Below are positions 48,868 to 52,936 of a stretch of DNA of 64,000 nucleotides, one piece after another. Source of the stretch: Escherichia coli (lineage in GTDB: Bacteria; Pseudomonadota; Gammaproteobacteria; Enterobacterales; Enterobacteriaceae). Within the stretch, counting starts at the first letter, position 1, and each line of letters starts with the position of its first letter. The stretch lies in the NCBI RefSeq assembly GCF_030384885.1, contig NZ_CP128613.1. One strand, written 5' to 3'. The position numbers and the translations under genes are program-made. Under the pieces are notes generated by a model. That model did no database searches. It was given only the letters and a program-made list of their open reading frames with translations, and was not told the origin of the DNA.

Positions 48868-49602
48868 ATGTCCAAACTCGATCTAAATGCCCTGAACGAA
48901 CTGCCGAAGGTAGATCGCATTCTGGCGCTGGCGGAAACTAACGCCGAGCTTGAAAAACTGGATGCTGAAGGCCGCGTTGCCTGGGCGCTGGAAAATCTGC
49001 CCGGTGAATATGTGCTTTCTTCCAGTTTCGGCATTCAGGCGGCGGTGAGCCTGCATCTGGTTAATCAGATTCGCCCGGATATCCCGGTGATCCTGACCGA
49101 TACGGGTTATCTGTTCCCGGAAACCTACCGCTTTATTGACGAGTTAACGGACAAACTCAAGCTCAACCTGAAAGTGTACCGCGCTACCGAAAGCGCCGCC
49201 TGGCAGGAAGCACGCTACGGCAAACTGTGGGAGCAGGGCGTTGAAGGCATTGAAAAGTACAACGATATCAACAAAGTCGAACCGATGAACCGGGCGCTGA
49301 AAGAACTGAACGCACAAACGTGGTTTGCTGGCCTGCGCCGTGAACAATCCGGCAGCCGCGCTAATTTACCGGTGTTGGCAATTCAACGTGGTGTATTTAA
49401 AGTGCTGCCGATTATCGACTGGGATAACCGAACTATTTATCAGTATCTGCAAAAACATGGCCTGAAATATCACCCATTATGGGACGAAGGATATTTATCG
49501 GTTGGTGATACACATACAACCCGTAAATGGGAACCCGGTATGGCGGAAGAAGAAACGCGTTTCTTTGGCTTAAAAAGGGAATGTGGGCTGCACGAAGGGT
49601 AA
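48868..49602 (+). CDS. cysH: Phosphoadenosine phosphosulfate (PAPS) reductase
   Basis: ORF track starts 48706; ATG at 48868 gives [25 protein letters not shown]... (244 aa). Confidence 0.93.
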
Positions 49603-49865
49603 ATATTGTCGGATAAAATAAACGCCTCTGTCAGAAATGATGGGGGTGTTTTTATTTTGCGAGCAGCATTCCGGCATTTAAACGTGAATATAGCAGGGGA
49701 AATCAACAGTTATAGAATGGCGTCGGGTGCTTGAGGCTGTCTGGCGTTAAGCATTCGCGAGGTTCCAGATGGACAAAAGCCCCAGGCGATATATCTATCA
49801 ACCTGAGGCTCGCGTTCGAACGTAGCAATTCGGATGTTAGTCTCTTCTTTGCAGGGAGGCAAGAC

Positions 49866-50018
49866 ATGCTGACAAAATATGCCCTTGTGGCAATCATCGT
49901 ACTGTGTTGTACAGTACTGGGATTCACGCTGATGGTAGGCGACTCGTTGTGTGAGTTGAGTATCAGAGAACGTGGTATGGAGTTTAAGGCAGTTCTCGCT
50001 TACGAATCGAAGAAGTAG
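49866..50018 (+). CDS. hokX: Hok/Gef-family type I toxin (small membrane peptide)
   Basis: ATG at 49866 after GGGAGG gives [50 protein letters not shown] (50 aa); Hok-type TM helix plus the LCE...AYE motif; symbol by position only. Confidence 0.75.
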
Positions 50019-50256
50019 CCACCACGCGGGGGTAAAACCCCGCGTATTGAATTGTGATGGTTTGGTCTCCTGCACCCTTTTTTTCATTTATATTGTTTTT
50101 GTGAATATTATGCCTGTGTTTATTATTTATATATATCACAGATGAAAATCATTGAATTATTCATAATGTGAATATTTTATTGAACGATATATATCACAGA
50201 TAATTTTTAATATATGCGTAAATATCCTTTAAGTTTTACTGAAGGATAAAAACATT

Positions 50257-51690
50257 GTGACTTTCTTTGATTTCTGGGGAAAAACCCGACGTGGCGAGAA
50301 AGAGGGTGGCGACGATTATCACCTTCTTTGCTGGCATTCGCTGGATGTAGCCGCGATAGGCTATTTAATGGTCAAAAACAACTGTTTCGGGCTGGCTGAC
50401 TATTTTCGTCAATTAGGTTTCGCTGACACGGATCAGGCAGCACAATTTTTCGCCTGGTTGTTGTGCTGGCACGATACTGGAAAATTTGCCCGCTCATTTC
50501 AGCAACTTTACCTGCACCCACAACTCAAGGTTCCGGAAGGCGCAAGAAAGAATTACGAAAAGATCTCTCATTCAACGCTGGGTTACTGGTTGTGGCATCA
50601 TTATTTAATTGAATGTGAAGAGTTGCTTCCTTCATCTTCACTCTCTTTGCGCAAACTTAAACGAGTAATAGATATGTGGATGCCCGTGACGACCGGGCAT
50701 CATGGTCGGCCTCCTGACCGTATCGATGAACTGGACAACTTTCTGCCTGAAGACAAAGCTGCCGCACGGGATTTTCTCCTTGAAATCAAGGTACTGTTTC
50801 CGCTCATCGAGATCCCTACATTCTGGGATGATGACGAGGGCGTTGAACTTATAAAACATTTTTCCTGGTATATCTCTGCAACCGTCGTACTCGCAGACTG
50901 GACGGGATCGTCAACGCGGTTTTTTCCACGCGTTGCACAGGCAATGGATATTAAAGATTACTGGCAGAAGGCTTTAGTTCAGGCTCAAAACGCATTAACC
51001 GTCTTTCCCCCAAAAGCAGAAAGCGCGCCTTTCACTGGAATTAATACGCTGTTTCCTTTTATTGAGAACCCAACACCGTTACAGCAAAAGGTGTTGGATC
51101 TGGATATCAGCCAGCCAGGACCACAGTTGTTTATTCTGGAAGATGTGACTGGCGCAGGTAAAACAGAAGCGGCGCTTATCCTGGCGCACAGGTTGATGTC
51201 TGCGGGGAAAGCACAGGGTTTGTTTTTTGGTTTGCCAACAATGGCAACGGCCAATGCCATGTACGATAGGCTGGTAAAAACCTGGCTTGCTTTCTATTCG
51301 CCACAATCCCGCCCCAGCCTGGTGCTGGCACACAGCGCTCGTTCGCTAATGGATCGCTTTAACGCATCGCTGTGGTCTGGTGATTTTGTGGGGTCAGAAG
51401 AACCGGATGAACAAGCGTTCAGTCAGGGATGTGCGGCCTGGTTTGCTGACAGTAACAAGAAGGCGTTGCTGGCTGAAATTGGCGTCGGCACGCTGGATCA
51501 GGCGATGATGGCGGTGATGCCGTTCAAACATAATAATCTGCGGCTTCTGGGGCTGAGTAACAAAATCCTGCTAGCCGATGAGATCCACGCCTGTGACGCT
51601 TATATGTCGTGCATTCTTGAAGGGCTGATCGAGCGGCAGGCGCGTGGCGGAAACAGCGTTATTTTGCTTTCTGCTACGTTGCCGGGGTAG
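50257..51690 (+). pseudogene. cas3: cas3 (type I-E), 5' fragment: HD nuclease plus helicase motifs I-III, premature stop
   Basis: 477-aa ORF with Walker A (VTGAGKTEAA), DExH (LLADEIHACD) and SAT motifs, stopping right after SATLPG; full Cas3 is roughly 890 aa. The start codon is non-ATG (likely GTG); my own count places it at 50258, one nucleotide off the track. Confidence 0.85.
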
Positions 51691-51746
51691 GGATACGGCG
51701 TGATGACACCGAATGCTTAAACGCGTTTAATCGCCACTATTCACTG

Positions 51747-52304
51747 GTGGTTTGCGCCAGCCGTAACCCGCGCTGGGCACGGGATTATCACACGGTCCAG
51801 ATGCCAAAAGAGGTGCGTAAAGCGCGTTATTTCAGCCGTCGCGAAGAGTTGAGCGCCCCTGATCTTCTAAGCGCGATTATCTCCCGGCGCGACTACTACA
51901 CCGATGCCTGGTGGATGGTGGCCGTGGCAACAACAGCTGATGCGCCTTACAGCCTCGAACAGTTGCAGGAAGGTTTACGCCATCCGGTTTTTCCGCTTTA
52001 TCTGGGGCGAAAAAGCCATCCGCTGGCATTACCCCTTGCGCCGTTACTGCTTGAAGGTAACGCGTCTGATGCCTTACGTAACGCATACCAACAGTATCAG
52101 GATCGTTTCCACGAACTGAAAGTCTCACTCCCGAAACTTCAGGATGAATGCTGGTGGGAAGGGGAGCACGATGGCCTGGTCTCGAGCAAAATATTACGCC
52201 GCCGGGATGTTCCTTTAAATCGTCAGCAGTGGCTGTTTGGGGAACGCACCGTCAATCAGGGGCCGTGGCTCAGCAAGGAGGAACCATGTACCTCTCAAGA
52301 ATAA
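51747..52304 (+). pseudogene. casD: casD (cas5e) 3' remnant
   Basis: Frame contains RDYHTV ... PLYLGRKSHPLALPL, matching the C-terminal two-thirds of Cas5e as I recall it; no N-terminal region; its 3' end overlaps the casE start as in intact operons. Confidence 0.65.
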
Positions 52305-52932
52305 CCTTACATACCGGCCAGCTTTCGCCTGCGCAGTTACTGCATCTGGTGGATCGCGGTGAATATGTGATGCATCAGTGGCTGTGGGATCTTTTTCCTG
52401 GCGGCAAAGAAAGGCAATTTCTTTATCGTCGGGAAGAACTCCAGGGCGCGTTTCGCTTTTTTGTCCTGTCGCAGGAACGCCCGGCGGAAAGTGAAATGTT
52501 CACCATCGAATGCCGGTCATTTGCGCCGGAGCTGCGTACCGGACAATCCCTTTGTTTCAACCTGCGGGCGAATCCAACAGTCTGTAAAGCGGGTAAGCGC
52601 CACGATCTGCTGATGGAGGCGAAACGGCAGGTGAGGGGGCAGGCGGAAGGAAGTGATGTCTGGTTGCATCAACAACAGGCGGCGCTGGGCTGGCTGGCTG
52701 CGCAGGGAGAGAGAAGTGGTTTTACACTGCTGGATACCTCGGTCGATGCCTACCGACAACAGCAACTGCGGCGGGAAAATGCCCGGCAACTGATCCAGTT
52801 CAGTAGCGTGGATTATACGGGGATGCTGACGGTCACCGAGCCAGGGTTATTTCTGCAACGTCTCTGCCTGGGGTATGGCAAAAGCCGGGCGTTCGGCTGT
52901 GGTCTGATGTTAATCAAACCCGGAGCAGAGGC

Positions 52933-52936
<4 letters not shown>
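52286..52936 (+). CDS. casE: CRISPR pre-crRNA endoribonuclease Cas6e (CasE)
   Basis: ATG at about 52286 after AAGGAGG gives MYLSRITLHTGQLSPAQLLHLVDRG...GCGLMLIKP. Confidence 0.85.

Follow-up and report, generated by a model that had tools for sequence, protein, structure and literature searches.

Is the small Hok-like reading frame between cysH and the cas3 remnant of this Escherichia coli chromosome a toxin gene with its own RNA control, the end of a longer coding frame, or part of the control region of the cas genes? The question arose from an original prediction on the window (the whole stretch of 64,000 nt from contig NZ_CP128613.1, to which all coordinates refer). The features described there are present, which confirms the observation itself, and the interpretation built on them was, as a whole, partly supported. 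We are highly confident that the stretch 3′ of cysH is a chromosomal hokX/sokX type I toxin-antitoxin module, lying upstream of a cas-E1 type I-E cas operon.

The predicted 50-codon Hok/Gef-type frame was found as described, together with its Shine–Dalgarno (SD) motif:

49866..50018, plus strand: hok (hokX) coding sequence, 50 aa, Pfam HOK_GEF match
49854..49859, plus strand: hok Shine–Dalgarno sequence GGGAGG, 6 nt 5′ of the ATG

Its product belongs to the Hok family, matching Pfam HOK_GEF (PF01848) over profile positions 1–42 of 42 with 39.1 bits against a cut-off of 22 (E 5.7e-10). The NCBIfam Hok models matched with scores below their equivalog/subfamily cut-offs (53 versus 89 and 39.5 versus 73), which fits a paralogue distinct from HokA. 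Residues 6–24 form a hydrophobic 19-mer with a mean Kyte–Doolittle value of 2.76, a strong transmembrane segment. Residues shared by >80% of Hok peptides are, in logo numbering, M1, C16, T18, L30, C31, E32 and E41; with an offset of 2, C14, T16, L28-C29-E30 and E39 of the window's peptide correspond to this published set. The gene is under purifying selection (pN/pS 0.11), with 0 nonsynonymous versus 3–4 synonymous differences among the Escherichia hokX alleles, and the GGAGG core of the SD is retained in 50 of 51 relatives. A comparison with functional Hok proteins, proposed as a way of refuting the assignment, revealed no inactivating change in the window's Hok. By analogy, the 50-aa peptide is probably toxic: 42 of 45 tested homologues, HokE among them, were toxic on overexpression (bioRxiv 10.1101/2025.08.07.668861).

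The hokX/sokX locus between cysH and cas3/iap is already published, and the window's copy is intact and differs from it in nothing essential. PMC7232551 places hokX in the cysH–iap region, and the locus is also described in PMC12736100. Only carriers of cas-E2 lack the hok sok system of the cysH–cas3 region, and earlier work has used whether it is there or not to trace the exchange of cas-E modules in E. coli (both PMC3903273). Routine annotation labels the hokX coding sequence "Hok/Gef family protein", as it does for DNA identical to the window in NZ_CP027579.1 (WP_000956458.1). We detected the coding sequence in 4220 of 5426 complete E. coli genomes (about 78%), as a single copy per chromosome and intact at ≥95% identity in 4218 of them; the hok/sok leader was present in 5417 of the 5426, again once in each. 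Beyond correct annotation, for which both the 50-codon gene and Sok on the minus strand should be called, but not the 95-codon ORF, the locus is of little importance: it is a type I toxin-antitoxin module of the textbook kind and is already mapped.

The closest known system is hokX/sokX of other E. coli strains, which have the same protein, WP_000956458.1, at the same position adjoining cysH. K-12 shares the locus, with a leader ∼91% identical up to the hok ATG. Its homology ends there, leaving sokX (b4701) orphaned: like other cas-E2 strains, K-12 has no hok coding sequence, whereas the window holds the complete module. A plasmid or phage origin was rejected, as the hokX type is chromosomal and plasmid-borne Hok peptides are only ∼40–43% identical to that of the window; the 'plasmid' matches at ≥95% identity are megabase records.

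On its cysH side, the module is preceded by a terminator:

49620..49651, plus strand: cysH intrinsic terminator, a stem-loop followed by a T run, found by terminator scan

This terminator shields the hok module against transcription from cysJIH and lies outside the toxin-antitoxin module. An Rfam match to ctRNA_p42d at 49618–49660 (24.8 bits against a gathering score of 50) was dismissed as a chance match to the same hairpin.

The original prediction had also considered an antisense Sok RNA across the leader and had suggested looking for its minus-strand promoter and terminator. All three were recovered in the sequence:

49768..49826, minus strand: Sok-type antisense RNA of ∼59 nt, the SokX equivalent, mapped from K-12 sokX through alignment A1
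49834..49862, minus strand: Sok promoter TTGCCT-17-TAACAT, with the −35 box at 49862–49857 and the −10 box at 49839–49834

The annotated K-12 sokX (b4701, ncRNA 2887353..2887411) is orthologous and corresponds to minus-strand positions 49826→49768, so that its 5′ end falls 7 nt from the −10 box. The RNA contains a hairpin (49809–49779) followed by a U run and folds with −23.7 kcal/mol (z −3.2). The promoter was conserved in 51 of 51 relatives, with TTGCCT as the −35 box and TAnnAT at 17-nt spacing. A generic promoter scan found no minus-strand promoter in the hok leader, because TTGCCT/TAACAT scores 8 of 12 and the threshold was 9; it was homology and conservation that revealed it. SokX or the sok leader has been seen by RNA-seq in K-12 and EDL933, which are strains other than that of the window.

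The predicted sense transcript carries every RNA sequence element of a hok mRNA, with conservation and covariation among relatives:

49713..49718, plus strand: putative hok promoter −10 box TAGAAT, 6 nt 5′ of the predicted mRNA start
49725..50084, plus strand: predicted full-length hok mRNA, ∼360 nt, starting with tac and ending in the T run behind fbi
49725..49737, plus strand: tac element GGGUGCUUGAGGC, start of the RF01794 match and predicted mRNA 5′ end
49777..49809, plus strand: ucb/SD hairpin, in which the ucb anti-SD GCCCCAGG pairs with CCUGAGGC (full-length fold, Rfam structure alignment)
49805..49844, plus strand: SD/dcb stem, GAGGCU (49805–49810) with AGUCUC (49839–49844), in the fold of the 3′-truncated RNA
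50024..50045, plus strand: GC-rich hairpin ACGCGGGG-GTAAAA-CCCCGCGT, 8 bp with the loop GTAAAA, in predicted folds
50064..50084, plus strand: fbi element GGUCUCCUGCACCC (50064–50077) and T7 (50078–50084), complementary to tac, 3′ end of the module

Rfam RF01794 matched the leader over its full model (1–157) with 104.5 bits (gathering score 59, E 1.8e-24); it also matched K-12 hokC, hokE and the sokX region, all in the hok-sense orientation. Homology among the relatives begins at GGGTGCTTGAGGC and ends at GCACCC and the T run, in keeping with the predicted transcript ends. Upstream of the predicted start, TAGAAT aligns with the TATAAT upstream of K-12 hokC (alignment A1) and may serve as the hok −10 box. 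The tac element was nearly invariant across 51 relatives, and the tac/fbi duplex had an energy of −21.8 kcal/mol. In the minimum free energy fold of 49725–50086, GGGUGC..GAGGCU pairs with GGUCUC..GCACCC (each written 5′–3′ by its ends). Over 42 distinct tac/fbi combinations the mean was −19.5, as opposed to −10.1 with fbi shuffled; in 34 of the 42, the cognate pair was better than the mean non-cognate one. The RNAalifold consensus contained the tac/fbi pairing, with UGC/GCA pairs, and showed compensatory changes in 20 of its 64 pairs.

Within the leader, a mok-type SD (GAGG, 49805–49808) sits in CCUGAGGC and pairs with GCCCC (49779–49783) in the predicted full-length fold; on the opposite strand, the DNA of this ucb/SD hairpin is the Sok terminator hairpin. 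The SD/dcb stem in turn encloses a hairpin, CGAA...UUCG (49817–49832). RNAalifold recorded double changes from A-U to G-C in the SD/dcb pair in 7 sequences; for the inner hairpin the numbers of double changes were 22, 8 and 8. The two folds predict that GAGG switches partner, from ucb in the full-length RNA to dcb in the 3′-truncated one.

The GC-rich hairpin behind the hok stop had been predicted with 9 bp at 50025–50048; it is present, with 8 bp and at 50024–50045. Its outer pairs showed 15 and 4 compensatory changes. By homology with plasmid R1, in which a 3′ stem-loop protects the processed hok mRNA (PMC9841398), it probably corresponds to that stem-loop, and its conserved placement between the hok stop and fbi is a structural prerequisite for 3′ processing. 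We rejected a role as transcription terminator, as no T run follows the hairpin itself; the run comes after fbi. Both hairpin and T run are parts of the hok mRNA and have no place in cas3 control. In other strains the hairpin site is an insertion hot spot for IS186/IS421. CP070026 carries IS421 just downstream, with homology to the window ending at ∼50040, inside the hairpin; in K-12, IS186 lies 19 nt after hokC, just past the GC hairpin region, and likewise 19 nt past the hokE stop.

Alignment to known chromosomal hok loci, another of the proposed checks, identified K-12 hokE/sokE (b4415/b4835) as the closest K-12 paralogue, with 78% amino-acid identity to the window's Hok. This locus also matches RF01794 and has the same order of elements (SD GGAGG, GC hairpin past the stop, fbi GCACC) and the same layout, with the Sok 5′ end 8 nt upstream of a conserved GGATG ATG. 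It lies elsewhere on the chromosome, beside ybdK, and differs in this ATG, which is 36 nt upstream and in frame in hokE but 32 nt upstream and out of frame in the window. K-12 hokC(gef)/mokC/sokC has the same leader structure (Rfam 118 bits) but a peptide only 39% identical to the window's. The tac/fbi, ucb, dcb and 3′ stem-loop elements of plasmid R1 hok/mok/sok (parB) all have counterparts in the window, as has, at the sequence level, the overlap of the R1 Sok promoter with the hok SD; sequestration of the R1 mok SD by ucb follows the same pattern as the window's ucb/SD hairpin (all PMC9841398). R1 serves plasmid post-segregational killing, whereas the window's copy is chromosomal and single.

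The main departure from these systems concerns mok. R1 has a defined mok, whose SD GAGG and nearby AUG are needed for hok translation, and the mokC ATG lies 8 nt after GAGG, inside the SokC-complementary region; no start codon stands there in the window. At the canonical mok start site, 7–8 nt after the GAGG position, we found TCG (GTTCGAAC in place of GTATGAAC), whereas an ATG stands there in 8 relatives and in K-12 hokC. The absence of a canonical mok is a point that we counted against hokX/sokX as the best explanation. Two other upstream frames are present:

49834..49872, plus strand: 12-codon uORF, whose UGA overlaps hok codons 2–3 (AUGCUGA)
49731..50018, plus strand: 95-codon in-frame ORF with a TTG start, from the ORF list, judged fortuitous upstream of 49866

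The best candidate for a mok-like coupling frame, judging by its conservation, is the 12-codon uORF. Its ATG at −32 and its end at +7 were found in 13 of 13 syntenic orthologs, with the stop over hok codons 2–3 retained as TGA or TAA in all of them. Other relatives have this ATG in the hok frame, at −33 or −36. No SD adjoins the ATG at 49834, which falls 8 nt past the mapped 5′ end of Sok. On the opposite strand its nucleotides belong to the −10 box of Sok, so the promoter alone may account for its conservation. TAnnAT was kept but the ATG lost in six relatives. An 18-codon ORF at 49769–49825, with a good SD (GAGG, 6 nt, ATG), was rejected as mok: the orthologues from Kluyvera, RIT691 and Lelliottia have AAA, ATA or TTA instead of its ATG, which is part of a stem showing compensatory changes.

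A possible, still tentative reading is that in Escherichia/Pseudocitrobacter hokX the SD-driven mok has been replaced by the 12-codon frame, with its AUG in the Sok −10 box, and that the framing of this AUG varies across the HokE/HokX clade, with ribosome transit as the only coupling requirement. As part of the same tentative reading, an in-frame AUG in the HokE/HokX clade would give an N-extended Hok and an out-of-frame one would act through termination and reinitiation. If so, coupling would need the passage of ribosomes and neither a Mok peptide nor a particular frame. Such a finding would refine the model slightly and would not make a new system; the mok-equivalent frame is a minor point for type I toxin-antitoxin specialists, and a recent Hok catalogue explicitly left Mok without assignment.

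Transferring the mechanism by homology from R1 hok/sok and from K-12 hokC and hokE, we propose that a weak promoter would give the ∼360-nt hok mRNA (49725–50084) in a locked form, with tac at the 5′ end paired to fbi at the 3′ end and the ucb box hiding the upstream SD GAGG (49805–49808). Slow 3′ trimming to the GC hairpin (50024–50045) would remove fbi and allow the leader to refold. The 59-nt Sok RNA (49826→49768, minus strand), abundant but unstable, would pair with the leader, block the upstream reading frame and trigger decay. Once Sok is depleted, the short upstream frame (49834–49872) would be translated, and ribosomes halting at the UGA over hok codons 2–3 would open the hok start for re-initiation. 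The 50-aa Hok would then insert into the inner membrane and depolarise the cell.

Could the hok frame instead be part of something else? The original prediction had noted that it is open back to the TTG at 49731, and had left the choice between a mok-like coupling frame and a fortuitous extension. The open frame is there; coupling through it did not hold up, and we judge the extension fortuitous because the in-frame open stretch upstream of hok, compared among 54 relatives, spans anything from just 4 to 123 codons. A real product, either an N-extended Hok or a long in-frame Mok, would have a precedent in K-12 mokC, which extends hokC in frame by 19 codons and shares its stop, and in-frame ATGs occur in some relatives, at −33, −36 or −51. 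Yet the TTG, at nt 7 of the predicted mRNA, falls in the tac stem and lacks an SD, no in-frame ATG or GTG was found from 49731 to 49866, and a 1-nt indel and a TAA cut the upstream frame to 20 codons in the E. coli alleles L007, L011 and L015; taken together, we give such a product next to no chance. Very improbable, too, is a primary role of the stretch in regulating cas3, with hok/sok-like sequences controlling cas through nucleoid-protein silencing or transcriptional interference. The stretch does adjoin cas3, and the sequence that comes next is rich in AT over 170 bp:

50087..50256, no strand assigned: AT-rich cas3 upstream tract, GC 0.20, with direct repeats

In K-12, H-NS binds AT-rich cas promoters, but Δhns raised the cas3 promoter only slightly (both PMC7019758). 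The tract had been predicted to begin at 50060, and hok to lie inside the AT-rich cas3 promoter region; the tract is real but begins after the T run (50078–50084), and hok lies upstream of it, in a module (49725–50084) with a GC content of 0.494, against 0.506 for the whole window. The right boundary of the module (∼50084; query position 481–482) is unchanged in strains in which iap comes next and cas genes are lacking, and the module also adjoins cysH in Kluyvera, Lelliottia and other genera without the window's cas3. The tract, conversely, is conserved only in loci carrying the window's cas3 allele, is absent where iap comes after hok and is unrelated in sequence to the K-12 (cas-E2) cas3 upstream region. 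It is thus part of the cas-E1 module and co-varies with that allele, not with hok (cf. PMC3903273). Nor are hok loci enriched near defence systems (12% versus 9.4% expected), and the window's cas operon has itself lost the part between mid-cas3 and mid-cas5e: the 'cas3 remnant' proved to be just that, a 477-aa N-terminal piece with the HD domain and the start of the helicase, directly followed by a C-terminal Cas5e fragment and Cas6e.

It is also rather unlikely, though worth weighing, that the module is a relic whose structure is preserved but whose translation is silent, so that Hok is never made, because the canonical mok start codon was lost in the Escherichia/Pseudocitrobacter hokX lineage, and the locus persists as a Sok-producing or neutral element. 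The substitution of GTTCGAAC for GTATGAAC and the leftover upstream ATG without an adjacent SD are in line with this, and K-12 tolerates loss of the hok coding sequence while keeping sokX. Chromosomal hok loci can be relics, since the five hok loci of K-12 are reported as inactive (PMC7232551, citing Pedersen and Gerdes 1999); the physiological role of such loci is debated, a T4-defence role, for example, being under re-evaluation (PMC13047441). Against a relic stand the strong purifying selection on Hok, the coding sequences intact at ≥95% identity in over four thousand genomes, the retention of every RNA element with compensatory changes, and the uORF stop kept over hok codons 2–3 in all syntenic orthologs.

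Some minor observations concern the surroundings of these elements. By eye, the AT-rich tract contains only isolated TGTGA and TCACA half-sites, with a spacing that is non-canonical for CRP. Two minus-strand ORFs were judged non-coding: one of 125 aa (49710–50087), open over just 34–124 codons in orthologues, and one of 74 aa (49703–49927), whose upstream extent differs among relatives and which stays open mainly because Hok is nearly devoid of Tyr, His and Gln codons. Near the end of the hok coding sequence lies one more structured element:

49993..50014, plus strand: small conserved hairpin UUCUCG / CGA-AGAA presenting CUUACGAAU, its stem invariant in 51 sequences

From its sequence, the TAC(Tyr46)-GAA motif at 50001–50006 is a possible site of A-to-I recoding by TadA. 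The motif around Hok codon 48 is discussed in bioRxiv 10.1101/2025.08.07.668861, and two relatives (L038 and L056) encode Cys (TGC) at the position of the Tyr46 codon.

The segment between cysH and cas3 (49603-50256, 654 nt) begins directly after the cysH stop at 49602 and carries a hok module upstream of the cas3 start. It matches E. coli 2013C-4282 with 100% identity; in that strain the ORF carries the annotation 'Hok/Gef family protein' (WP_000956458.1). Parts of the segment were present in 5417 of 5426 complete E. coli genomes and the hok coding sequence in 4220, as a single copy per chromosome and with ≥95% identity in all except two; no copy was found on plasmids among these 5426 genomes. 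In K-12, the ncRNA sokX (b4701) is annotated in the cysH-cas3 interval, on the other strand from these two genes, and the alignment of K-12 to the window runs from cysH through the leader as far as the hok ATG, ending exactly there and giving way to the K-12-type cas3 region. Projected onto the window, sokX is a minus-strand RNA at 49826->49768. A hok sok system has been described between cysH and cas3 in every strain apart from cas-E2 carriers (PMC3903273). The cysH-iap hok has been named hokX (PMC7232551), and in urological E. coli 90% have hok together with sokX adjoining cysH, the remainder having sokX only, as in K-12 (PMC12736100). Given this match to the literature and the mapping of sokX, the locus is hokX/sokX, a type I toxin-antitoxin system that was already known. 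The module is complete in the window and under purifying selection; its mechanism, including transcript ends, processing, coupling and toxicity of this allele, is predicted from homology. Its features are:

49769-49825: 18-codon ORF (SD GAGG, 6 nt, ATG) inside the hok leader, within the Sok-complementary region
49862-49834, minus strand: Sok promoter, -35 TTGCCT (49862-57), 17 nt, -10 TAACAT (49839-34), 7 nt to the mapped 5′ end
49854-49859, plus strand: hok SD GGGAGG, 5′ of the hok ATG
49866-50018, plus strand: hok coding sequence, 50 codons
49993-50014: small invariant hairpin UUCUCG/CGA-AGAA, TACGAA (Tyr46-Glu47) in the loop, TAC at 50001-50003
50024-50045: GC hairpin of 8 bp, ACGCGGGG-GTAAAA-CCCCGCGT, 3′ of hok

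The original prediction of a 50-codon Hok-family toxin behind a strong SD was borne out by the peptide's match to Pfam HOK_GEF (39.1 bits, cut-off 22, E 5.7e-10) and by the leader RNA described below. The hydrophobic 19-mer has a mean Kyte-Doolittle value of 2.76. Comparison with known chromosomal loci, as had been proposed, gave 78% identity to K-12 HokE and 39% to HokC; plasmid Hoks are ∼40-43% identical. Conserved residues, pN/pS and Hok comparisons revealed no inactivating signs in the coding frame, a possibility raised beforehand: all residues conserved in >80% of 1264 Hok peptides are found in the window Hok, pN/pS is 0.11 across 13 syntenic orthologues, and Escherichia alleles show 3-4 synonymous and 0 nonsynonymous differences. 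TACGAA at Tyr46-Glu47 is the TadA-type motif proposed to let many Hok mRNAs be recoded from Tyr to Cys. At this position a Cys codon (TGC) is already present in the DNA of two relatives, Lelliottia (L038) and a Pseudocitrobacter faecalis paralogue (L056).

The leader (49725-49881) matched Rfam RF01794 ('sok antitoxin') over its full length (104.5 bits, gathering score 59, E 1.8e-24). Because RF01794 matches fall on the hok-sense strand at four loci (window leader, K-12 hokC, hokE and the sokX region), opposite to the annotated SokC, SokE and SokX RNAs, the match marks the hok leader rather than the antisense RNA itself, and its strand should not be taken as that of Sok. An antisense Sok across the leader had been anticipated, with a minus-strand promoter and terminator to be sought. 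Indeed, besides the sokX projection, TTGCCT and, at 17-nt spacing, TAnnAT were each conserved in 51/51 relatives, and the predicted Sok RNA folds into a hairpin with CUUUUGU behind it. Plasmid R1 hok/sok is defined by tac/fbi end pairing, a ucb box that sequesters the mok SD, a dcb box, a stem-loop at the 3′ side of the processed mRNA, and Sok (PMC9841398); the window has counterparts of all but a canonical mok. The MFE fold of 49725-50086 pairs 5′ GGGUGC..GAGGCU with 3′ GGUCUC..GCACCC, and the tac/fbi duplex of the two mRNA ends has −21.8 kcal/mol. Across 42 distinct combinations, the mean was −19.5 versus −10.1 with shuffled fbi, the cognate pair being better than the mean non-cognate in 34. 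In predicted folds, GAGG (49805-08) switches its pairing partner, from the ucb box at full length to AGUCUC (49839-44) after fbi removal. RNAalifold (51 sequences) returned 64 pairs, 20 with compensatory changes, including in the 5′ hairpin, SD/dcb stem, inner hairpin and GC hairpin.

As predicted, the hok frame is open back to TTG 49731 (95 codons). The suggested mok-like coupling role was not supported, as the in-frame open stretch ranges from 4 to 123 codons among 54 relatives, and the alternative of a fortuitous frame fits. In other E. coli alleles, a 1-nt indel and a TAA interrupt this stretch 20 codons upstream of hok. We rejected conservation of the 95-codon ORF; its TTG lies inside tac, as nt 7 of the predicted mRNA. 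K-12 mokC provides an in-frame precedent, sharing the hokC stop and adding 19 codons, whereas the window has TCG at the equivalent start position, 8 nt past GAGG. In eight relatives an ATG is retained at this position, either in frame (67 aa) or opening an 18-codon frame that ends at +7. Of the upstream ATGs, only the one at 49834 is shared by all 13 syntenic orthologues. It starts a frame of 12 codons with a stop (TGA, or TAA in some) that overlaps hok codons 2-3; in other relatives this ATG lies 33 or 36 nt upstream, in frame with hok. Judged from sequence, this 12-codon frame is the best candidate coupling frame, though its case is confounded: the ATG and the Sok -10 box are reverse complements, and TAnnAT survives without the ATG in six relatives. 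The 18-codon ORF at 49769-49825 is kept in Escherichia and Pseudocitrobacter only; orthologues from Kluyvera, RIT691 and Lelliottia have lost the ATG. This ORF is probably a by-product of stem sequence.

Natural variants delimit the module to 49725-50084 and show that it moves with cysH rather than cas3. In strain R12 (cysH-hok-iap, without cas genes), homology stops at query position 481-482 (∼50084), directly after fbi and the T run; in FDAARGOS_1337, homology ends at ∼50040, within the GC hairpin, and hok is closely followed by an IS421/IS186-family element; and an IS1-associated deletion removed all sequence from ∼49721 on. Among 56 related loci from species-representative genomes, cysH is immediately 5′ of hok in Escherichia species, Pseudocitrobacter, Kluyvera, Lelliottia and one further enterobacterium, and the window's cas3 allele follows in just three of these cysH-linked loci. 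The cysH-hokX order extends beyond Escherichia (Pseudocitrobacter L008-L010, Kluyvera L018 and L021, Lelliottia L038, and L019). The Pseudocitrobacter loci are close to E. coli (Hok 98% identical, final 99 CysH residues 99-100%, L009 Cas3 N-terminus 93.5%), which could reflect recent transfer or doubtful taxonomic assignment of the assemblies.

Contrary to the expectation that the module lies inside an AT-rich cas3 promoter region, it has a GC content of 0.494 and sits upstream of the AT-rich tract. The tract itself is real (50087-50256, GC 0.20 versus 0.506 for the window), starting after the T run at 50078-50084 and not at 50060. It co-varies with the cas-E1 allele of the type I-E cas operon and contains two direct repeats:

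50129-43 and 50187-201: ATATATATCACAGAT, 100% identical, 58 bp apart
50091 and 50158: TATTGTTTTTGTGAATATT / TATTCATAATGTGAATATT, 79% identical, 67 bp apart

Of the two ATATATATCACAGAT copies, the second shows the better conservation in related cas-E1 loci. In K-12 delta-hns, cas3 promoter activity rises only slightly (PMC7019758); the K-12 cas3 upstream region is unrelated in sequence to the window's. Hok loci in general showed no enrichment near defence systems.

The 'cas3 remnant' was correctly recognized, as the operon (50257-52936) has an internal deletion from mid-cas3 to mid-cas5e, with a junction near 51680; cas regulation is therefore moot in the source strain. What is left comprises, in order:

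Cas3 N-terminal ORF, 477 aa: HD domain and beginning of the DEAD helicase, directly followed by the Cas5e fragment
51747-52304: Cas5e C-terminal fragment
52148-52936: Cas6e

The lost ∼4.9 kb held the cas3 3′ half, casA, casB, cas7e and the cas5e 5′ part. Strain 2013C-4282 has the full cas set and is identical to the window on both sides of the deletion. Megablast of 51400-52000 placed both halves apart in all except one of 2744 matching genomes, the exception (H50) having the two pieces joined but spread over ∼1.1 kb. In strain 5283 (L065), cas3 is annotated from the ATG equivalent to 50214 (MRKYPLSLLKDKNIV-TFFDFWGK); an extra T at 50234 in the window ends this frame at TAA 50247-49. GTG 50257 is preceded by GAAGGA at a distance of 10 nt and shared by all four aligned loci; it is the likelier true cas3 start.

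The GC hairpin behind hok was present, slightly to the left of the predicted 50025-50048, and a terminator-like reading was unsupported. A GGGG-N6-CCCC hairpin after hok is a repeated IS186/IS421 target, in agreement with the GC-rich hot spots noted for IS186 (PMC3903273): CP070026 (L061) has an IS421-family transposase gene after hok, with window homology stopping at ∼50040, and K-12 carries IS186 19 nt past the stop in both hokC and hokE (L004, L064).
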